From Escherichia coli (GTDB lineage: Bacteria; Pseudomonadota; Gammaproteobacteria; Enterobacterales; Enterobacteriaceae), in assembly GCF_041248615.1 (NCBI RefSeq), contig NZ_CP158426.1: 64,000 nt of DNA, one strand, 5' to 3'. Each line of letters begins with the position of its first letter. The first letter of the stretch is position 1. The notes under the pieces are model-generated. The model worked only from the letters and a program-made list of their open reading frames with translations. It ran no database searches and was not told where the DNA came from. Positions 1-11,932 of this stretch are shown piece after piece. The translations under genes were made by a program, and so were the position numbers.

Positions 1-725
1 TTGTTTATCTTGACTGTATCGTCCTGAAAGTTCGGCAGGACAGTCGCATCATCAACAAATCGGTGTTCCTGGCACTGGGCATCAATATCGAAGGTCAGAA
101 AGAACTGCTGGGTATGTGGCTGGCCGAAAATGAAGGGGCGAAGTTCTGGCTCAATGTGCTGACTGAACTGAAAAACCGCGGTCTGAACGATATCCTCATC
201 GCCTGTGTGGATGGCCTGAAAGGCTTCCCGGATGCCATCAACACAGTATATCCGAAGGCCCGCATCCAGTTATGCATCGTGCATATGGTGCGCAACAGCC
301 TGCGCTTCGTGTCATGGAAGGACTACAAAGCCGTCACTCGCGACCTGAAAGCGATTTATCAGGCTCCCACGGAAGAGGCAGGTCAGCAGGCACTGGAAGC
401 GTTCGCTGCGGCCTGGGACAGTCGCTATCCTCAGATAAGCCGAAGCTGGCAGGCTAACTGGCCGAATCTTGCCACGTTCTTCGCTTATCCAACGGACATC
501 CGCAAAGTGATCTATACGACGAATGCCATCGAGTCGCTAAACAGCGTGATCCGCCATGCGATCAAAAAGCGTAAAGTGTTCCCGACAGACGACTCGGTGA
601 AAAAAGTGGTGTGGCTGGCAATCCAGTCTGCGTCCCAGAAATGGACGATGCCGTTGAAGGACTGGCGAATGGCAATGAGCCGCTTTATTATCGAGTTCGG
701 TGACCGCCTGGACGGTCACTTCTGA
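1..725 (+). CDS. IS256-family transposase, C-terminal part (5' end lies outside the window)
   Basis: Frame of ORF 63..725 stays open back to position 3; translation carries IS256/mutator-type transposase motifs (NEGAKFW, ACVDGL.GF, CIVHMVRNS). Recognised from memory, not searched. Confidence 0.85.
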   Translation, partial: VYLDCIVLKVRQDSRIINKSVFLALGINIEGQKELLGMWLAENEGAKFWLNVLTELKNRGLNDILIACVDGLKGFPDAINTVYPKARIQLCIVHMVRNSLRFVSWKDYKAVTRDLKAIYQAPTEEAGQQALEAFAAAWDSRYPQISRSWQANWPNLATFFAYPTDIRKVIYTTNAIESLNSVIRHAIKKRKVFPTDDSVKKVVWLAIQSASQKWTMPLKDWRMAMSRFIIEFGDRLDGHF

Positions 726-1044
726 GAAAAGGCATTTACACAGAATCCTAAACAGGCTCTACGACATGGCTATTCCGTATGAACCATACGGAGATTTAAC
801 CATGGCACATTCTTTACCATTCCTTCCGGCAACCGATACAGCACATCCTCCGATGTCCATCCCTGCCTGCTGACAGTTTTTTACGCCGGAGGGCCATTGT
901 GTGACAACCACAGTGCTGTAACAGCAACCAGCCTGCTTTACCCAAACTCCAGTCCAGATTTTAACTGAACCGCCATTCACACCCTGACCACACTGCCCGT
1001 ACCGGGACAGCTGTTGCCTGCGTGTCGTCTGGCTGCTGAGGAAT

Positions 1045-1434
1045 ATGACGATGTACGCAAAATCCTTTATTGCATTTGATGGCAACGGGCGTCTGACGGG
1101 TGCCCGTACCGCACAGACTGCACCTTACGATCGCTACACTTGCCACCTTTGCGGCAGTGCGCTCAGATACCACCCGCAATACGACACTGAGCGTCCCTGG
1201 TTTGAACACACTGACGACGGGCTGACGGAGCACGGTCAGCAGTGCCCTTATGTCAGACCGGAACGCAGGGAGATACAACTGATTAAGCGTCTGCAGCAAT
1301 TCGTACCGGATGCCTTACCCGTGGTGCGTAAAGCCAGCCGGCACTGCAGACAATGTCATCACGATTATTATGGGGAGCGGTACTGCACGCACAGCCATAC
1401 CGGGCACTTCAGTGAGGAGGGGGTGGCAGAATGA
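1045..1434 (+). CDS. hypothetical Cys-rich zinc-ribbon-like protein (129 aa)
   Basis: ORF with CxxC-x13-WFEH motif and a second Cys/His cluster (CRQCHHDYYGERYCTHSH); GAGG 3-4 nt before ATG 1045, alternative ATG at 1051; stop overlaps start of next ORF (ATGA). Confidence 0.5.
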   Translation: MTMYAKSFIAFDGNGRLTGARTAQTAPYDRYTCHLCGSALRYHPQYDTERPWFEHTDDGLTEHGQQCPYVRPERREIQLIKRLQQFVPDALPVVRKASRHCRQCHHDYYGERYCTHSHTGHFSEEGVAE

Positions 1435-1856
1435 ACGGTATAAAAACGGGGCTGGGGATCACGCCGGGTGAACACATTATCAGTGCTGATTCTGCGCTCA
1501 GCAGAAATATCCGGCAGTGTTTCTGCCTTTCCTGTCATGGCCGGTTGATTTTGCAGACAGATGCTCAGGGGGCGTGGTTTGAGCACGATTTACATGTCCT
1601 GAGCGAGCAACAGAAGGCAGCCTGCGTGGTGCTGAATCCGGAAAAGTCCCACCCTTACATTGAGGATATGGAGATGTTTTTATCGCCATTACCGGTCGTG
1701 CTGGAGTGGCATTGTGTGATGTGTGAGCAGTTTTTTCATGGGAAGAAATTCTGTGAGGCCTGTGGTACGGGGATTTATTGCAGAGCGGTATGTACGAAGT
1801 CTGTTTACAGCTACCAGCCAGACTTGTTTCAGGACTGCGGAGGTGCGAGTACTTAA
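1431..1856 (+). CDS. hypothetical Cys-rich zinc-ribbon-like protein (141 aa), paralog of upstream ORF
   Basis: CxxC-x12-WFEHDLH motif plus CxxC-x9-CxxC-x4-C-x3-C cluster; start codon overlaps upstream stop (ATGA at 1431-1434), suggesting translational coupling. Confidence 0.5.
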   Translation: MNGIKTGLGITPGEHIISADSALSRNIRQCFCLSCHGRLILQTDAQGAWFEHDLHVLSEQQKAACVVLNPEKSHPYIEDMEMFLSPLPVVLEWHCVMCEQFFHGKKFCEACGTGIYCRAVCTKSVYSYQPDLFQDCGGAST

Positions 1857-2057
1857 TCCGAAATGCCCGACCTGCTCAGGGCGTTCAGAAGTATCGGAAC
1901 CTGCATTTTATCTGGTGTTTCGCACCCACCCCGTTCGTGACACAAAGGCGCGACACCGGATATCCGCAGTCCTGCTTACCTGAATAAAACCCGGGGTATT
2001 GATTGTGTACTGTGGTGCGAAATCGCACCGTGATCGCGGATTCGCCGAATCCGCACT

Positions 2058-2300
2058 GTGGTGTCAACCAACCATACGCGAGAGTCCTCTCCGTATTTAT
2101 CAGTGCCTCAGGACGATTTCTGCATAGTTAATCCAGGGGGCTGCATTGTTTATTTCCCTGCTAATGGACGTGACATCCAGGATATTCATGATCCTGATTT
2201 CCCTGAGCAGTATCAGCGCTTATTGGAGCGTCTGGATTATCAGACGATGCCCGGTACTAAAGCATCAGGCCAGCGTAACTCTGGCTACAGCGGTTTTTGA
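2058..2300 (+). CDS. doubtful ORF (80 aa), possibly a gene remnant
   Basis: ORF begins with GTG, contains no ATG start, no clear ribosome-binding site; same frame as ORF 2328..2894 but separated by two in-frame stops. Confidence 0.25.
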   Translation: MVSTNHTRESSPYLSVPQDDFCIVNPGGCIVYFPANGRDIQDIHDPDFPEQYQRLLERLDYQTMPGTKASGQRNSGYSGF

Positions 2301-2327
2301 CCTGTTGTAACTGTAAGGTGATTTATT

Positions 2328-2894
2328 ATGTATACAGAATCAAATGTTAAGCTTTCCTGTAACGCCCTCTGGCAAAAGTGTGTCCTTGCAACTCTGTATC
2401 GGGCTGCAGCCACACATCCTGAAATTAAATTATTACAATTTAAATTAATACCAGGGCAGGGTATTAATAAGGCCATTCCCTCTCTGATGGCTGATTTTAC
2501 TGGTGAACTGCATAGACTCATTTCTGAATATTTGCAGTGTAAGCGACGTAAAGAGCAATCTGTTGAGCCCACCCCTTTATATTATCTCTGGAGTAGGGAA
2601 GCTGTGGCTAACGATACCACTCCTTATCTTATGGTGCTGCTACTTAATAACGATGTCTGGTGTAAGAGTCGTGAGGTGGTGGTTCTCAGAAATCTGATTG
2701 AGCAGGCGTGGGGAAAAGTATTGGGTGAAGATAACTCCATTACACATCTGGTTGTGTATCCTGAAGTGCTGTCGTTGGTATTTGATGCAGCTAACACATA
2801 CAACGCTGAGCCTGCTGTACTGGAACAGACGGCCCGGGCTTACATTGAATCACATGGTACCATTGAACGTCATCTTGGGTGTAGTGACTTTTAA
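2328..2894 (+). CDS. hypothetical protein (188 aa)
   Basis: ATG preceded by AAGG about 8 nt upstream; moderately AT-rich; followed by a stem-loop at 2911..2938. No family recognised. Confidence 0.45.
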   Translation: MYTESNVKLSCNALWQKCVLATLYRAAATHPEIKLLQFKLIPGQGINKAIPSLMADFTGELHRLISEYLQCKRRKEQSVEPTPLYYLWSREAVANDTTPYLMVLLLNNDVWCKSREVVVLRNLIEQAWGKVLGEDNSITHLVVYPEVLSLVFDAANTYNAEPAVLEQTARAYIESHGTIERHLGCSDF

Positions 2895-2910
2895 CGTCAG
2901 GTGATGCATA

Positions 2911-2938
2911 AGGGCCTTTCGCTGAGAGGCCCTGTTTA
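2911..2938 (+). terminator. putative intrinsic terminator after ORF 2328..2894
   Basis: 7-bp stem AGGGCCT/AGGCCCT with 9-nt loop followed by GTTT; T-run is weak. Confidence 0.3.
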
Positions 2939-3156
2939 CACAATTAAATAAATCGAGCCCGACCAACAATTTTGATGTTAACAGCAGGATTATTGAGGGG
3001 CAATCAATGTGTTCTTCGGTAGCGATTACGGTAGTGAACGGACCTGCTGTCTGAATGGCATCGATCCGCAAGCGTATCGGCGCCATATTCTGAGCGTACT
3101 ACTGAAATGGCTAATGGCAGTAAAGAGAGACTTTACGTATATTTGCATAAAGCAGG

Positions 3157-3186
3157 ATTTTACGACTAGTCAACATTCTTTATAAT
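3157..3186 (+). promoter_or_regulatory. putative sigma70 promoter of orphan gene
   Basis: TAGTCA (3157-3162), 18-bp spacer, perfect TATAAT (3181-3186), about 55 bp upstream of ATG 3240. Confidence 0.3.
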
Positions 3187-3239
3187 TCTTCAGGTTCAGA
3201 GTATCTGACATATAGGGTTATGTATTGGGGAGACATTTA

Positions 3240-3941
3240 ATGTTTGGCCATCTGTTACGATACTTTAGTTTCTGTAAAAAAGATTTATTAGTATTTCATC
3301 CTGAATCTGATTACTCAGATAATTTACATAAAGCCTTCTCTTTTACAAAAAGGCTAGGATTTAATGAAGAATGGAATGGGGTCACAAAAAACAAAGAATA
3401 TGATTATCAGGATGTATTCAGTCATGTCTGTCTGCAGTCTGGTGTGACAGACTTTTCCGCTTCAGCAGGACAATGCTTAAAGTGGAGTCATTATTTTCAG
3501 CCATATTTTGAGAATATCCTTGAATGTCGGGTATGGGTTACCGTTGGACAACTCTGGAAACAGGAACGATTTATTTACAATCCGTCAGTTGCGGATTTTC
3601 AGCGCTGGTCTGAAAAAGGGATTCAGCCTGAAGATTTTAGACATCACTCGGGGTTTAACTTTCATGCGTGGTTGACGACGGAAAATGGTGTGATTGTGGA
3701 TGTTTCCTTTATGAGTACGTTATCGCGGCGATTACCTGAACACCTGAGTGAAGTCAGTGGAAGTGTGATTATTGGCACGCCAGAGACGGTTCTTCCTGAG
3801 TATAAATATGTTCCCATGATTGTCGGTCAGAGGATTGTTGAGAAAATAGAAAAACGCTCTTTCATTGGTTTTCTGGCGCACGACGATATTGATTTATATA
3901 CAGTACCTGCAATCTTGGTTCCGGTATGGAAAGAATGTTAA
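3240..3941 (+). CDS. hypothetical protein (233 aa), AT-rich orphan cargo gene
   Basis: ORF 3225..3941 starts at TTG; in-frame ATG at 3240 sits 6 nt after GGGGAGA. Sampled stretches are clearly AT-rich versus neighbouring core genes. No family recognised. Confidence 0.55.
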   Translation: MFGHLLRYFSFCKKDLLVFHPESDYSDNLHKAFSFTKRLGFNEEWNGVTKNKEYDYQDVFSHVCLQSGVTDFSASAGQCLKWSHYFQPYFENILECRVWVTVGQLWKQERFIYNPSVADFQRWSEKGIQPEDFRHHSGFNFHAWLTTENGVIVDVSFMSTLSRRLPEHLSEVSGSVIIGTPETVLPEYKYVPMIVGQRIVEKIEKRSFIGFLAHDDIDLYTVPAILVPVWKEC

Positions 3942-4260
3942 AGCACGGAATAACACTATGCACTTACCGCTTTCCGGAACTCAGCTTGTTACCTGAGCGG
4001 TCAACAGAGCAGTCTTTCAGTGTCTGCACTTGGTTGCCACTAAACCGGAGTCATTTATCAGAAGTATATGTTCATGGAAGGATATTGTCAGCGCCAGTGA
4101 TATAAGACGGTAATGAGGATAGCCACCCCGCATGGGTTTCCTCAACACTGGTCACTGTGACAAGCGCACCATGATCGTCTTTGTATCGCTGATTGACTTT
4201 CGATAATAGAACATCTTCTGACATAAATTTTAGTACGGTAACAATTAACTAAATTTTCAT

Positions 4261-4527
4261 GTGGTAGCACTGAATCAGGAGACTGCGTTTCCTGATGTGT
4301 GCTTCTGCAGCCGTTACCGGATACAGACTTCGATACCAGTTACTTCGACATCCGCCATGTGTCCTGGGACCCGCTATAACGAAGTTGGAGGTAATCAGTA
4401 CAGCGTTCCCGAAATGCTGTGTGGTCAGCCAGTCTCGATACGAATATCGCTGAACGATGAGTTGCGGATCTACAGTAATGAGAAACTGGTGGCCTCACAT
4501 CGCCTCTGCTCAGTGTCGTCTGGCTAG
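4261..4527 (+). pseudogene. transposase C-terminal fragment (IS21 IstA-like?)
   Basis: Short ORF with C-terminus resembling transposase tails (ELRIYSNEKLVASHRL); weak, from memory only. Confidence 0.3.
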
Positions 4528-4671
4528 CAGATAGTACCGGAACCTCACGCCCCGCTCTGGCAGCAGATCAGTCAGGTGGAACATCGACCACTGAGTGCCT
4601 ATGAGGAGCTGTTGTGATGCATGTGTCAACGACGGATGAAAGTGGCTCTTCCGCAACCTGGGTGGAGATTT

Positions 4672-6098
4672 TCATGCCAGTGGACTCATTACCCTCTGCC
4701 TGAGTAGTTCAAATCCTGCTCGACCATACATCTGGCGTTTCAGCATCTTCAGGCGATTTACATGACCTTCGACAACACCATTACTCCAGTGACTACTGAT
4801 TGCCTCACATATAGCTGCAGCATCAGCTTCCATCCCCGCCGCCACGCGCCGAAATTCTGCTGAACCGCTTTCGTGGACTCGAGTGAACCAACTGCTTAGC
4901 TGTGATTTATTTTGGGTTTTCAGAATACGGTAGAACTCGAGTGCCAGTTGCTGCGCTATTTTCAGCTCAGGTTCTTTTTCACACATCAGACTAATAAATC
5001 GGGAAGCATAATTTTCTTCATCCCTGGTTATTCTCCAGGGCATCAACCAGCGGCTTACCCGGGACACTGAAGGAAGTCTGACGGCAGTAGTAACCGGTGG
5101 GTTCCAGCCTTTACGCCATTTGGCAACCGCATCCCTGACGATGGTTTCACTGCCTGTAAATCCCCGGGCCACCATTTCCCGCCATATCCGGCTGGCGTTA
5201 TAATTACCACTTTCTCGTTGCTCTTTTAACCACTCCCTCCATGGGTCCAGAAGCCCTCGCTTTGGCGGTCGGGTTGACATTTCAGGGAATGTTCCTGAAC
5301 GCACCCAGCGACTGACTGTCACACGCGACAGGCCTGTAATACGGGATATTTCCCTGAAACTACATCCCTTGTTATGCAGGGCCATAACCTCTGTCCAACG
5401 CTGATGCCGTTTTTTGCGGGTTTGTTGTTTTAGGCGTTCCGGACGACGGAGCGATGCTGCAGGCACAGATGGTTCTGGATCAGGTGATTTCTTTGGTGAC
5501 AACTCACTGGCAACAAGACGTATCAGAGGTATATGTCTATACATCATTCGTTCAGGCGCATCGCCAATATTTTTTAGCAGATGCCATCGATCGGCCACCT
5601 GTCTGGCCTGAGGTGCACCTTCACGTGCTGCTGTCGCATAGACTCCACTGCGATCACGCGAGACAATCTGTATTTCCGGATATTTTCTGAACCAGGTCGC
5701 CAGCGTACGCTGATCACGGCCGGGAAGCAGGACGAGGGGACGGTGAGTATCAAGATTGACGATTAACGTACCGTAACGGTGGCCCCGATGCCACGCCCAC
5801 TCATCAATACCGACATGAGGCGAGCCTGACTGTTTCGTCTCCGGGGTATTGATAACCCTGCGAAGGAGAGTATCAGCACTGCAACGGAGACCCACTGCCG
5901 TTGCTGCCCGTTTCCCGGCCTCACCTCCGGCGATTAATCCCAGTTGACGTTGTAAATTTTGTAACGCCTGTGAAGACTGTTGGTGTGAACCGGCGAAGGG
6001 AGCAAGCGACTCGGCAAAAATTTTACGTGAACAAGCCGGGTTACGGCAGTACCAGTGGCGGACAGAAAATACAAGCCATAGCGTATGTCCTGAGCAGG
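4672..6098 (-). pseudogene. ISL3-family transposase, C-terminal ~475 aa, interrupted by IS2
   Basis: C-terminus carries ISL3 signature (SNGVVEGHVNRLKMLKRQMYGRAGFELLRQRV); N-proximal zinc-finger-like RHWYCRNPACSRKIF; ORF runs 12 codons into IS2 end at 6099. Confidence 0.8.
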
Positions 6099-6109
6099 TG
6101 GATTTGCCC

Positions 6110-7015
6110 CTATATTTCCAGACACCTGTTATCACTTAACCCATTACTGGCCTGCTGCCGCAGATATTCCCGTGGCGAGCGATAACCCAGTGCACTATGC
6201 GGATGCCATTCGTTATAATGCTCGAACGCCTCTGCAAGGTTCTTTGCTGCCGTTAACCCGTCTGGTTTAGGCATGATACTGATGTAGTCACGCTTTATCG
6301 TTTTCACGAAGCTCTCTGCTATGCCGTTACTCTCCGGACTCCGCACCGCCGTGTTCTTCGGTTCAAGCCCCAATATCCGGGCAAACTGCCGTGTTTCATT
6401 AGCCCGGTAGCATGAACCATTATCCGTCAGCCACTCTACTGGAGACGCCGGAAGCTCGTTGCCGAAGCGGCGTTCCACCGCTCCCAGCATGACGTCCTGT
6501 ACTGTTTCACTGTCGAAGCCGCCCGTAGTGACTGCCCAGTGCAGTGCCTCACGGTCACAGCAGTCCAGCGCGAACGTGACTCGCAGTTTTTCTCCGTTAT
6601 CACAGCGGAACTCGAACCCGTCAGAGCACCATCGTTGATTGCTTTCTTTCACGGCCACTTTGCCAGTATGTGCCCGTTTCGATGGCGGTACAGCGGTTTT
6701 TCGCTCAAGCAACAGCGCATTCTGGCGCATGATCCGGTAAACACGTTTGGCATTGATCGCAGGCGTACCATCAAGTTCGGCCTGTCTGCGAAGCAGCGCC
6801 CATACCCGACGATAACCATACGTGGGCAGCTCTCCGATAACATGGTGTATACGGAGAAGCACATCCGTATCATCTGAGTGACGGCTGCGGCGACCATCTT
6901 TCCAGTCATCGGTTCGTCTGAGAATTACGTGCAACTGCGCACGCGACACCCGGAGACAACGGCTGACTAAGCTTACTCCCCATCCCCGGGCAATAAGGGC
7001 GCGTGCGCTATCCAC
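6110..7015 (-). CDS. insD: IS2 transposase InsD (orfB)
   Basis: 301-aa [19 protein letters not shown]... matches remembered IS2 InsD. Confidence 0.9.
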
Positions 7016-7338
7016 TTTTTTGCACGCCCGTATTCAACGGCTTCTTTAAGGAGTTCATTTTCCATCGTTTTTTTGCCGAGCAGGCGCTGGAGTTCTTTAA
7101 TCTGCTTCATGGCAGCAGCAAGTTCAGAGGCAGGAACGACCTGCTCTCCTGCGGCCACAGCAGTAAGACTTCCCTCCTGGTATTGCTTGCGCCAGAGAAA
7201 TAACTGGCTGGCTGCCACACCGTGTTGCCGGGCAACAAGGGAGACCTTCATTCCCGGTTCAAAACTCTGCTGAACAATAGCGATCTTTTCCTGTGTAGTA
7301 CGCCGTCTGCGTTTCTCCGGTCCTAAGACATCAATCAT
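6973..7338 (-). CDS. insC: IS2 InsC (orfA)
   Basis: ORF 6973..7383 contains [22 protein letters not shown]...; start placed at that Met (121 aa); overlaps insD as expected for frameshift fusion. Confidence 0.85.
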
Positions 7339-7429
7339 CTGCTCTCCAATGACTAGTCTAAAAACTAGTATTAAGACTATCACTTATTTAAGTGATATTG
7401 GTTGTCTGGAGATTCATGGGGCCAGTCTA

Positions 7430-7569
7430 CCTGTGTAGTACGCCGTCTGCGTTTCTCCGGTCCTAAGACATCAATCATCTGCTCTCCAATGACTAGTCTA
7501 AAAACTAGTATTAAGACTATCACTTATTTAAGTGATATTGGTTGTCTGGAGATTCATGGGGCCAGTCTA
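7430..7569. repeat. perfect tandem duplicate of the terminal 140 bp of IS2 (IRL end plus insC 5' end)
   Basis: 7430..7569 is base-for-base identical to 7290..7429. Confidence 0.85.
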
Positions 7570-7782
7570 ATGTGTATCCGGGATGGATGTTTACCAGAAC
7601 CTTCTCTGTTCCAGTGTGTGGAGTTTTACAGAAGAGGCGACTGTATGCAACTCTTGCCCCGTAACTGTCTTTATTCGTTTCTCCACACTCTCCGGACATT
7701 GTAAATTCCAGATGTGTGGCAGTGTGTTTTTCGTAAATCGTACACAATGCATTTTTACACGGAGTTCAGCCAGTCGTATCAC
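7570..7782 (-). pseudogene. probable N-terminal remnant of the ISL3-family transposase, beyond the IS2 insertion
   Basis: Short frameshifted minus-strand ORFs (7520..7747, 7591..7782) adjacent to the IS2 junction; assignment by position and weak similarity only. Confidence 0.35.
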
Positions 7783-8036
7783 TGAGAGTTTTTTTTCTGA
7801 TTTGTACCACTCATGCAGCAGTGATAAGGAGATATTTTCTCTGTCGGGCCAGCAGGGGCGGTGCCACCTGTTTAGTTTTCTTATGTTTGGTAAAAGAGAG
7901 GCTAAAATATATACAACAGGCGCATGTAATGATTCATATTGTTAATCATTAACCAGTAAGAATTAATGTAGTGGATCGGTAATTCAGGACACCTCGAAAT
8001 CCTGTTAATGTTAAAACAGTGAAAATGGGGTGATGC

Positions 8037-8354
8037 ATGAGCAAAACTCGTCGGACTAAACGCACCTTTTCCCCGGAGTTCAGGCTCGAAGCTATCGAGC
8101 AAGTAGTTAAATACCAGCGCGATGTCAGAGAAGTCGCGCTGGCACTTGAGCTCAATCCTGACCATTTGCGTAAATGGATACGGTTGTATAAGCTGGAACT
8201 TCAGGGTATTGAGCCCGCTGGTAATGCCATACCCCTGAACAGCGAGAAATTCAGCAGCTTAAAAGCGCAGATAAAGCGCCTTGAGATGGAAAAAGAAATA
8301 CTAAAGCAGGCTGCCGTGCTGATGAGCGAAATCCCCGGCAAGCTGTCGCGCTAA
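8037..8354 (+). CDS. IS3-family transposase OrfA (105 aa)
   Basis: MSKTRRTKRTFSPEFRLEAIEQV... with helix-turn-helix and leucine-zipper-like tail typical of IS3 OrfA. Confidence 0.75.
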   Translation: MSKTRRTKRTFSPEFRLEAIEQVVKYQRDVREVALALELNPDHLRKWIRLYKLELQGIEPAGNAIPLNSEKFSSLKAQIKRLEMEKEILKQAAVLMSEIPGKLSR

Positions 8355-8455
8355 TCACACTGCTGAAAGCAAAGCGGCCAGTGCGGATTATTTGTCATTT
8401 ATTCGGTGTTCACCGTAGCGTTTATTACGCGCAGGTGAAGCGTCCTGTTAATGTA
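8355..8455 (+). pseudogene. IS3-family orfB N-terminal remnant (truncated)
   Basis: Reads ...LFGVHRSVYYAQVKRP... typical of IS3 OrfB N-terminus, then ends at the junction near 8456. Confidence 0.45.
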
Positions 8456-8519
8456 TCAGCGCCAATGATATAAGACAGTAATTAGGATTCGGACGATTTC
8501 CTGGACTGCTTTATTATGC

Positions 8520-9229
8520 CAGCCCGCATTGTTGGCGGTACATTTCAGGGATGACTGCACCCAGCGAAAATTTTATACGCCGCTCGTTATACCATCTGAT
8601 GTAAGCATCCACATGCCGCATGAATTTTTCAGGCGTGATACCCAATCATTTACGCCCATAATATATTTCAGTTTTCAGTCTGCCGAAAAAGCCTTCGCAT
8701 GCAGCATTATCAGGCGAGCATCCTTTACGGGACATTGAGCGAATAAGGCCTGCTGTATTCACTCTTTCCAGCCAGGCCAGCGATAATGCCCACCTCTGTC
8801 ACTGTGTATCACCGGTCGTTCGCCAGCATTTAACGTTTCGACAGCGTTATCCAGCATAGTGTTGACCAGTTCAGCATCGGGGCGTGTACTGAGAGACCAG
8901 CTCACAACTTTTCTGTCGAAGCAGTCCACCACCGGTGATAGCCAGACTTTTCCTGCAGGAAGCTGGAACTCCGTGATATCTGTCAGCCATTTCTGATTAG
9001 GTTGCTCCGCCTTAAAATCTCTGGCGATAAGGTTATCCGGAGAAGGTCCGATTTCTCCGCAATATGAGCTGTAGCGGCGATGACGGTTACGGCTGACGAC
9101 AAGCTGTTCCTCCACCATAAGTCTGCGTACAACCTTTTCTGATAGCCGATCCCCCTCATGCCTGAGCATCGCATGCAGGCGACGATAGCCATAACACTGG
9201 TAATTACTGTTAAATATATCTGTCAGCAT
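8520..9229 (-). pseudogene. IS3-family transposase orfB (DDE), frameshifted
   Basis: ORF 8759..9229 has DDE-region motifs (WLTDITEF, HSDRGG); downstream out-of-frame segment encodes SMSRKGCSPDNAACEGFFGRLK. Confidence 0.75.
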
Positions 9230-9337
9230 CGTACGTATCGTGGCGTATTTATCACTGGCTTTCAGTGCAGCCCGGTGATAAAAATAACTGCTACGGGCAA
9301 GGCCCAGAACATGCAGTAATTCTGTCAGGGGATATGT

Positions 9338-10041
9338 TTATCTCAGGGCATCAGTAATCTTTGTTTTTTCTCTGTTGTTCAGGTGACTGATGCTGATGCC
9401 CGGGTCTTTTTTTATTATTTCCTCCGCTTTTTTCAGAATATCCAGTTCCATCTGCCGGCGGCGTATTTCCTGATTCAGTCGGGCGACTTCCTCCCGCAAC
9501 GCATCGCGTTCTGCCTCCAGGGAAGGGGCGTTATGTTTACGCATAGTCTGGTAAGCACTGTTGCCGATAATTTCATCTTTCCATTTATACAATACCGCGC
9601 GACTGACACCAATACGCCTGGCGATTTCACTGGCTGATCCTTGTCGTGTACAGAGTACCATGACAGCCTGACGTTTGACTTCTGGTTCAAAGGACGCAAC
9701 CGGATTGGTCTTACTGGTAAATACACGTCGTCTGTCGGGGGAACGTTCATTAACCCAGCGAGCGAGCATATCGGTACAGGGATAACCCAGAGTCCTGCTG
9801 GTAAACGCCAGGCAGCAGCCGTGGTTAAGATAATGTTCAACGGCAACCTGTTTTTGCTCATCGGAGTAACGGTGCTTATGACGAATGGATTCTTTTGATC
9901 CGCCACCTGCTTCCCATGAACGGATCCAACGCCGCAGATTTCTTTTCGAAGGGTAGCCCAGTTCGCGTACGACGGGGCCAGCTTCTTACCATATTTGAAA
10001 TAAAGCTCAATGGTGCGAATTTTTTGTTCTTCAGTAAACAT
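9338..10041 (-). pseudogene. IS3-family transposase orfA, frameshifted
   Basis: MFTEEQKIRTIELYFKYGKK at 10041 then a frame shift; ORF 9338..9769 carries the helix-turn-helix and coiled-coil tail. Confidence 0.6.
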
Positions 10042-10291
10042 GTTTCATCTCCTGAGAGTCCAGGAAATCGTCCGCATCCCCTAACGGTCAAAAATCGTGG
10101 CGTTGATACAGGGGAAATCCGTAGTTTTTGATGCCAGCCATAACGTGTTTGACTATAAAGTATTACGAAAGGACTTTAATGAGCCCCTGGAATAATTCAT
10201 TAAAGTAATTTACTTCGCTATCCTTTTCCCAGTTACTCACAAAGAAAAATATTCATAAAATAATTCCCGGGCTGGCAGCCCGGGATGATTA

Positions 10292-11554
10292 CTATTTTAA
10301 TGGATTGTTAATCTTTGCATATTCAAACGGGCTGATACATTGTTCTCTGTTCGCACCCAGAAAATCTGCCCACCACTGTAGCATCAGTCGACGTTCTTCC
10401 AGATGTTCTGCTTTATGGATATATGCAGCACGTACACCATTACGCTCCTGATGGCTCATCTGACGTTCCACAGCATCGCGGGACCACAAACCTGATTCAA
10501 TCAATGCACTGCACGCCATCGCCCGGAATCCATGACCACAGACTTCCTGGGTTGTGTCATATCCCATCACCCTCAGGGCTTTATTTACAGTATTTTCACT
10601 GATCGGTTTACGCGGGTCATGTGCTCCCGTAAAGATCAGACCATTTTCACCAGCCCATGTCTGTAGTTCTGTCAGTATGGCTACAGCCTGTTTGCTGAGT
10701 GGCACAAGATGTGGTGTTCGCATCTTGGAGCCCCGGTGTGAGTATTTTACGCCTGGCAGAGGTTCGCGTTCGGCTGGAATAGTCCACATGGCATTGTCAA
10801 TATCAATTTCAGACCAGCGGGAATATCTGAGTTCACTGGAACGAATAAAAACCAGTAAATTCAGCATAACTGCCAGTCGGGTGACAGGCTGACCTTTATA
10901 ACCGTCAATACGCGACAGAAGTTCAGGCAGGCGTGAAAGATCCAGAGCAGGGCGATGCTGGCGTTTTACCGTGGTCAATGCACCAGCCATATCCAGAGCC
11001 GGGTTATATCTGATGATGCCAGACTGTACGGCATAACGCATTACAGCAGATATTCTTTGCTGCAGACGACTGGCGATTTCATAAATTTGTTTTGCTTCTG
11101 CAGCACGAACAGGGATAAGCAGGTCCGGGGTATTGAGTGTTGTGATATCCCGGTTGCCGATAAAGGGGAAAACGTGTGTCTCGAGGCTTTTGATTACTTT
11201 ATCGCTGTGTGATTGTGCCCATTGTTTATTACTGGCATGCCAGCGTCGTGCAATATGTTCAAAAGAGAGTTGTAAATCAGGGACTACTTTTTTAGCTCTT
11301 TTTTGTTCGCAAGGGTCAATCCCCTCTGAAATCAGTTTTCGGGCCTCATCCCGTTTTGTACGAGCTTCGGAGAGAGAAACTTCTGGATATACACCAAGTG
11401 CCAGAGTCTTCTCCTTACCCAGAATACGATAACGGAGACGCCAGTAACGGGAACCATTAGGATGAACCAGCAGGAACATGCCAGCCCCGTCAGTGAGTTT
11501 ATAAGCCTTGTCAGTGTGCTTTGCAGCCCGGATTTTTGCGTCAGTCAGTGCCAT
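10292..11554 (-). CDS. P4-type tyrosine integrase (420 aa)
   Basis: MALTDAKIRAAKH... N-terminus and length typical of P4/CP4-57-like integrases; about 200 bp from the tRNA-Phe 3' end, same orientation. Confidence 0.9.
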   Translation of the reverse strand: MALTDAKIRAAKHTDKAYKLTDGAGMFLLVHPNGSRYWRLRYRILGKEKTLALGVYPEVSLSEARTKRDEARKLISEGIDPCEQKRAKKVVPDLQLSFEHIARRWHASNKQWAQSHSDKVIKSLETHVFPFIGNRDITTLNTPDLLIPVRAAEAKQIYEIASRLQQRISAVMRYAVQSGIIRYNPALDMAGALTTVKRQHRPALDLSRLPELLSRIDGYKGQPVTRLAVMLNLLVFIRSSELRYSRWSEIDIDNAMWTIPAEREPLPGVKYSHRGSKMRTPHLVPLSKQAVAILTELQTWAGENGLIFTGAHDPRKPISENTVNKALRVMGYDTTQEVCGHGFRAMACSALIESGLWSRDAVERQMSHQERNGVRAAYIHKAEHLEERRLMLQWWADFLGANREQCISPFEYAKINNPLK

Positions 11555-11751
11555 AGTTCAGCCTTCTGAATGCGTTAAAGAGGGTACAAATTCTGTCGAA
11601 CTGGGGTATACCCGCAATTATACCCACACAATGGGGTTGATGTGGGGGGAATCTGGTTGAGTTCGGTAGAATTGATTTGGAGGCAGAACGCTTAAATTGT
11701 GGCGTTCTGAAACGAAAAACGGACCTCCGTGGAGGTCCGTTGATATGAATT

Positions 11752-11827
11752 TGGTGCCCGGACTCGGAATCGAACCAAGGACACGGGGATTTTCAATCCC
11801 CTGCTCTACCGACTGAGCTATCCGGGC
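11752..11827 (-). tRNA. pheV: tRNA-Phe (anticodon GAA)
   Basis: Reverse complement reads GCCCGGATAGCTCAGTCGGTAGAGCAGGGGATTGAAAATCCCCGTGTCCTTGGTTCGATTCCGAGTCCGGGCACCA (76 nt); pheV assigned by yqgA-speC context. Confidence 0.95.
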
Positions 11828-11932
11828 AACGGGGCGCATTAAACCTGATTCGCCTCGTCTCGTCAATCAAATTTCTTCAATTTAGTGCAGACTGCACAAT
11901 CTATCATCACTTTGCCGCTATTGCACACATTG

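Follow-up and report, generated by a model that had tools for sequence, protein, structure and literature searches.

In the chromosome of Escherichia coli NRZ14408, the left end of a complete IS2 element is followed directly by a second copy of the element's own terminal 140 bp. This duplication is probably a real structural variant of the NRZ14408 lineage, made by the transposase of IS2 itself. It lies in a stretch of 64,000 nucleotides (the window), which corresponds to positions 960001-1024000 of NZ_LT599825.1; coordinates given below are those of the window unless stated otherwise. Positions 7290-7429 and 7430-7569 are identical at all 140 of 140 bases and stand in direct tandem, which confirms the perfect 140-bp repeat of an IS2 end, free of mismatches, that had been reported in a preliminary description of this DNA. 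TRF scored the array at 560, with a period of 140 and about 2.1 copies, and found no other long-period tandem array in the 64-kb window. A perfect tandem repeat of this length cannot be a product of chance.

The duplication contains a single novel junction, A7429 to C7430, at which the exact left terminus of IS2 (the last base of the terminal inverted repeat IRL) is joined to an internal IS2 position, that of C7290. An IS terminus joined to an arbitrary target without homology is a signature of transposase strand transfer. Three origins had been suggested in the preliminary description, and aberrant transposition is the best supported of them, since the IRL terminus meets internal IS2 sequence with no microhomology.

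The IS2 element and its duplicated left end

The complete element occupies positions 6099-7429 on the minus strand. It is 1331 bp long, gives a gap-free alignment with the annotated K-12 IS2A at 95.5% identity, and is an iso-form of that element with the same termini (TAGACTGG... and ...CAAATCCA). Its inverted repeats are imperfect, 42 and 41 bp long, and both arms were detected. The right-hand repeat, IRR (41 bp, right terminus TGGATTTGCCCC..., positions 6099-6139, minus strand), was recognized as part of the inverted repeat I1/I2 and by its match to the K-12 IS2A terminus, and its outer edge coincides with the limit of homology to strain 746 described below. The orfA (insC) gene, encoding the IS2 repressor of 121 aa, lies at 6973-7338 on the minus strand and was identified from its translation and from its match to NCBIfam NF006928 ("IS2 repressor TnpA"; 273.5 bits, cut-off 229). 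The orfB (insD) gene, an open reading frame of 301 aa at 6110-7015 on the same strand, matches NCBIfam NF006918 ("IS2 transposase TnpB"; 700.8 bits, cut-off 597). The A6G window for the -1 frameshift that yields the OrfAB DDE transposase can be read directly on the minus strand at 7015-7021, as AAAAAAG (CTTTTTT on the plus strand), and RefSeq annotates the element as an intact IS3-family transposase with programmed frameshift.

In length, termini, sizes of IRR and IRL, orfA and orfB, the A6G window and the NCBIfam matches, this copy is like canonical IS2 as represented by K-12 IS2A. Apart from its sequence divergence, it differs in the extra direct copy of nt 1-140 outside its left end, and in lacking a 5-bp target-site duplication because it bridges a deletion.

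The duplicated unit is IS2 nt 1-140 and takes in the 42-bp IRL, the 5' leader and codons 1-16 of orfA/insC. Both copies are on the minus strand. The first (7290-7429) lies inside the complete element, and the second (7430-7569) is an extra left-end fragment that is missing from the orthologous locus of strains TUM9803 and GF43. The inner IRL (42 bp, 7388-7429, minus strand), which forms the left terminus of the complete IS2, was recovered both by inverted-repeat detection and by alignment to K-12 IS2A, and departs from the IRL of K-12 only at IS2 nt 13. The outer IRL (42 bp, 7528-7569, minus strand) is arm I2 of the detected inverted repeat and adjoins the non-IS flank, where homology to strain E500002 begins. 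The duplication also gives rise to a truncated gene, orfA' (7380-7478, minus strand), whose translation runs from 16 codons of OrfA into 16 codons read through the inner IRL, for a product of 32 aa followed by a stop. Neither this 32-aa orfA' nor a 100-aa open reading frame on the plus strand at the junction is recorded in the public gene-position index or in other assemblies.

Orthologous loci, flanking DNA and the assembly

The IS2 element sits in the distal part of an island adjoining tRNA-Phe (pheV), amid other IS remnants. In a collection of 5,426 complete E. coli genomes, only two strains other than NRZ14408, TUM9803 (Japan) and GF43 (Switzerland), share this IS2 together with its right flank; at the orthologous IS2, which occupies the same site, each has the 140 bp once. 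When positions 7430-7569 are set aside, the NRZ14408 locus is collinear with these two over 10.4 kb at 99.92-99.97% identity, with 3 mismatches and 0 gaps relative to TUM9803 and 6 mismatches and 2 gaps relative to GF43. The junction was searched for with a 50-mer (7405-7454) built from 25 nt on either side of the point where A7429 joins C7430, a query that can seed solely across the junction. It was present in 1 of the 5,426 genomes, NRZ14408 itself, and in none of 72,556 plasmids. A 90-bp junction query was uninformative, because out-of-order half-matches from ordinary IS2 copies were merged into one place. The duplication is thus private to the NRZ14408 assembly.

The neighborhood of this part of the island varies among the three strains. 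The 10.4-kb island end (99.9% identity, IS2 included) lies beside tRNA-Phe and yqgA in NRZ14408, beside an annotated tRNA-Ser in TUM9803, and beside a module of RelE/ParD and DUF4942 genes in GF43; these differing neighbors suggest recent movement of the island, or of its end, between chromosomal sites. In the window, the region concerned (approximately 1-11830) contains an integrase gene (10292-11554) and the tRNA-Phe gene (11752-11827). The debris within it (1-725, 8037-10041 and 10106-10195) includes IS1414 (IS256-like) at the start of the window, two transposase pseudogenes with frameshifts and, beside the integrase, a 90-bp piece of a phosphoethanolamine transferase gene (10106-10195).

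The left flank of IS2 is an ISEc38 (ISL3-like) transposase gene (4672-6096, minus strand, annotated in RefSeq) that is truncated by IS2 and has an intact copy in strain 746. Beyond the intact ISEc38, that strain has GntR, amidohydrolase, MFS and citC genes. The right flank (7570-8036, plus strand) consists of DNA other than ISEc38; strain E500002 has this DNA, free of IS2, downstream of a MarR-family gene. Homology to strain 746 stops exactly at 6098, and homology to E500002 starts exactly at 7570, so that both IS2 termini are fixed without reference to any consensus. The pentamers at these limits are GCAGG (6094-6098) and ATGTG (7570-7574), with CCTGT following the inner end, and no two of them match. 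The absence of a 5-bp target-site duplication at either possible end, previously noted for GCAGG and ATGTG, therefore extends to the comparison with the inner CCTGT.

A target-site duplication is expected at a simple IS2 insertion, and its absence here is no argument against the identification of the element as IS2. It is explained by the flanks themselves: with ISEc38 on the left and unrelated DNA on the right, IS2 spans a deletion. Judged from the sequences on its two sides, the element bridges two formerly separate sites, through an IS2-bounded deletion or IS2 x IS2 recombination. The state without target duplication is common to NRZ14408, TUM9803 and GF43, and because the latter two share the deletion and possess the 140 bp only once, the deletion is older than, and unrelated to, the duplication. 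Either IS2 x IS2 recombination or a transposase-mediated adjacent deletion could account for this older event. The presumed ancestors, namely an IS2 within ISEc38 flanked by a GCAGG duplication and an IS2 at the right-hand site flanked by an ATGTG duplication, are absent from the 5,426 genomes.

The occurrence of the duplication in only one assembly among 5,426 genomes favors another of the origins considered in the preliminary description, an assembly or finishing artefact. Pieces overlapping by the last 140 bp of IS2 would have been joined untrimmed, or consensus or gap-filling steps would have re-inserted the IS end, and the real genome would have a single copy, as TUM9803 and GF43 do. Also in favor of this explanation, the two copies are perfectly identical (sequence cannot tell a recent event from an artefact), their boundary is the edge of an IS repeat, where untrimmed contig overlaps fall, and the record, flagged as linear, dates from a 2016-era submission to ENA.

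Several properties of the assembly argue against an artefact. In a later publication, the same group refers to the NRZ14408 genome paper for the PacBio RSII (SMRT) sequencing protocol, and the pipeline stated for that later work itself is HGAP3 or SMRT-Link assembly, a Bridgemapper check, circularisation, and Illumina correction (BWA/VarScan) to QV60; on this basis, the NRZ14408 assembly is consistent with PacBio RSII/HGAP finishing followed by Illumina correction. Reads of the PacBio type are long enough to cross a 1.3-kb IS, and a contig break is not to be expected there. Since long-read assemblers are not broken by an element of this size, transposase chemistry explains the coincidence of the junction with a repeat edge better than contig joining does. 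In addition, the chromosome is a single record that opens with the start codon of dnaA and whose two ends do not overlap, the 137-kb plasmid with its several IS26 copies is resolved and closed, and the 10.4-kb comparison with TUM9803 shows the near-identity described above.

TRF found no other long-period perfect duplication in 254 kb of NRZ14408 chromosome and plasmid. This sample includes boundaries of IS1414, ISEc12, ISEc31, IS26, ISKpn6 and ISCfr1, but none of the approximately 12 sibling IS2 copies in the genome, and it is therefore a weak test. Outside the window, the chromosome also contains a 291-bp repeat of about 19 copies with 84% matches in iatC (inverse autotransporter; NZ_LT599825.1 51,641-57,163), an array of ordinary domain repeats. 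The locus is like an untrimmed contig overlap in being a perfect tandem duplicate at a repeat boundary in one assembly; it differs in that the assembly is apparently long-read and has no second case in the 254 kb. The earlier concern over the assembly thus holds as far as the restriction to one genome goes, and is weakened by the signs of a PacBio-finished assembly without comparable errors. We regard an artefact as unlikely, though as an explanation to be taken seriously.

The 7429/7430 junction and possible routes to it

At the novel junction, ...GGGGCCAGTCTA is joined to CCTGTGTAGTAC.... The bases at the borders of the two copies differ when compared in register (T7289 vs. A7429, and C7290 vs. 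A7570), and microhomology is zero. As no border base is shared, the duplicated unit is uniquely defined and the junction is blunt.

These features bear on slipped replication, also put forward in the preliminary description, and more broadly on a transposase-independent tandem duplication through replication slippage or unequal sister-chromatid exchange. Short tandem duplications are known to arise spontaneously, and the hexamer TGTGTA is found just outside both IRL copies (7432-7437 and 7571-7576). However, these hexamers are 1 base out of register and predict a unit of 139 bp with the junction ...GTCTAATGTGTA..., where ...GTCTACCTGTGTA... is observed, and the unit borders share no microhomology in register. 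It is also very unlikely that an end point would by chance fall exactly on an IS terminus. Slippage is disfavored, as it does not predict a blunt junction at such a terminus, and we judge an origin of this kind to be extremely improbable. The hexamer is separated from the inner IRL by 2 nt and from the outer IRL by 1 nt, a placement that may be chance or may reflect a target or flank preference of IS2.

IS2 transposes by copy-out/paste-in. In step I, the formation of the figure-of-eight and minicircle, IRL acts only as recipient and has no donor function, while in step II cleavage and transfer to the target involve both ends of the abutted junction, IRL as well as IRR (PMC3299598). Since IRL is a donor in step II alone, a junction between the IRL terminus and a target is a signature of paste-in (PMC3299598). 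At the NRZ14408 locus the paste-in would have been directed at IS2 itself, into a copy of matching orientation whose nt 136-140 (CCTGT) would have served as the 5-bp target.

Two routes from such an event to the present structure can be envisaged. In the first, an IS2 minicircle would integrate into a resident IS2 to give IS2(1-140)/IS2(1-1331)/IS2(136-1331), and homologous recombination between the approximately 1.2-kb direct repeats would then collapse this nested structure. In the second, a transient tandem dimer, (IS2)2, would form, and its reactive IRR-IRL junction would attack the interior of one of the dimer's own two copies, with deletion of nt 141-1331 of that copy. By either route, a remnant of 140 bp from the left end would come to lie directly against the IRL terminus of a full IS2 that appears intact. 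Both lead to the same product. The structure, its restriction to one assembly, the blunt junction at the terminus and the integrity of the element are observed; the pathway and the order of its steps we infer. On balance, the locus is probably a natural fossil of IS2 auto-integration, arising either from paste-in to the element's own copy or a sibling, or from decay of a dimer. It is also possible that the NRZ14408 state is ancestral and that the single-copy state was produced from it when the 140-bp repeats recombined; the three loci are too similar to root.

The nested intermediate was not found at the NRZ14408 locus, nor was an (IS2)2 dimer. The true locus could be larger than the assembled one, i.e., a nested IS2-in-IS2 or a tandem dimer in which the assembler collapsed a tandem repeat of approximately 1.2 kb and left the 140 bp as a trace. 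Assemblers are able to collapse tandem repeats, and collapse of IS2(1-140)/IS2/IS2(136-1331) would give exactly the observed sequence. Multi-kb PacBio reads, however, normally resolve a structure of 2.7 kb, and instability of such intermediates has been reported (PMC9333248). A larger locus is accordingly given very little credence here, and slippage and a collapsed larger structure, taken jointly, are still quite unlikely.

Self-integration by IS2 can be compared with what is known of IS dimers. IS2 is among the elements listed with known dimers, and for IS30 dimers inner IS sequences were recovered as targets (PMC9333248). The decay of (IS2)2 or (IS30)2 dimers through deletions that run from the IR-IR junction into an IS copy predicts a full IS abutting a truncated direct copy, joined bluntly, which is the arrangement seen here; in contrast to those cases, NRZ14408 has no dimer or IRL-IRR junction at the locus, and the pathway is deduced from its product alone. 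In a tandem dimer or minicircle, IRR and IRL abut with a spacer of 1-2 bp, whereas the 7429/7430 junction connects IRL to nt 140 and contains no IRR. The NRZ14408 structure is therefore not itself a dimer and could represent only what is left after one has decayed.

A query of abutted IRL and IRR ends gave single-piece matches in few genomes, and in about 9 of the 5,426 did a place cover at least 80% of the query. In strains KD0845, 13C1079T and 405, a degenerate IS2-like relic has an IRL-like end that is separated by 1-2 bp from the IRR terminus of an IS2 (approximately positions 3045-3047, 3044-3046 and 3041-3044 of the respective extracted loci). The IS2 at the relic is full-length in KD0845 and 13C1079T and truncated to approximately 0.3 kb in strain 405, and the relics have approximately 73-90% identity to IS2 over matching stretches. 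By their sequence, these junctions look like natural IR-targeted insertions of IS2, and they resemble both the IR-targeting of IS911 and IS30 and the recipient geometry of step I. The presence of IS2 beside IS2-related sequence in these three strains shows that there is no effective barrier to self-targeting.

The NRZ14408 junction differs from these IR-targeted cases in that IRL is joined to a point 140 bp inside the element. IR-targeting was rejected as its origin, as no IRR is present there. Spontaneous small rearrangements and duplications at an IS2 end are reportedly known from gal alleles such as IS2-6 and IS2-7, which are attributed to Ghosal and Saedler and to Besemer and colleagues at around 1978-1980; unlike the NRZ14408 duplication, these are said to have been inverted duplications and deletions, selected for gene expression.

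Consequences for the element and its host

The inner, complete IS2 appears intact and could still transpose. The outer fragment would add a second IRL with its weak promoter P_IRL and OrfA-binding region, both of which have been described for IS2 (PMC3299598), as well as the 32-aa orfA' reading frame. If so, both left ends of the element would be usable, the P_IRL/OrfA-operator module would be present twice and a 32-aa OrfA' peptide would be encoded, and either IRL might act as recipient end, giving minicircles of 1332 and 1472 bp. Recombination is expected to make the 140-bp direct repeat unstable, through loss or reversion, and the zero divergence between its copies is in keeping with this. 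Because both flanks are IS debris in the pheV-associated island, no host gene is hit and no host phenotype is expected.

IS elements that transpose by copy-out/paste-in are not known to have target immunity. If real, the duplication is a clean natural case of self-integration by an IS3-family element, consistent with this absence, and it marks the NRZ14408 lineage. Elements with a double IRL would then be a simple genomic marker for how frequently copy-out/paste-in elements hit themselves. If it is an artefact, there is a 140-bp error in the reference genome of a clinically used test strain. The duplication is either a private by-product of known IS3-family chemistry or a small assembly error, mechanistically ordinary and probably real, and as such it is a minor curiosity that matters little beyond bookkeeping.

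A consensus scan for promoters and terminators over positions 7200-7700 gave no matches; the weak extended -10 P_IRL of the literature does not fit the consensus used. A 20-nt near-perfect palindrome, TATCACTTATTTAAGTGATA, lies across the inner edge of IRL and is present in two copies (7378-7397 and 7518-7537), where it overlaps the reported OrfA-binding region (IRL residues 39-48).
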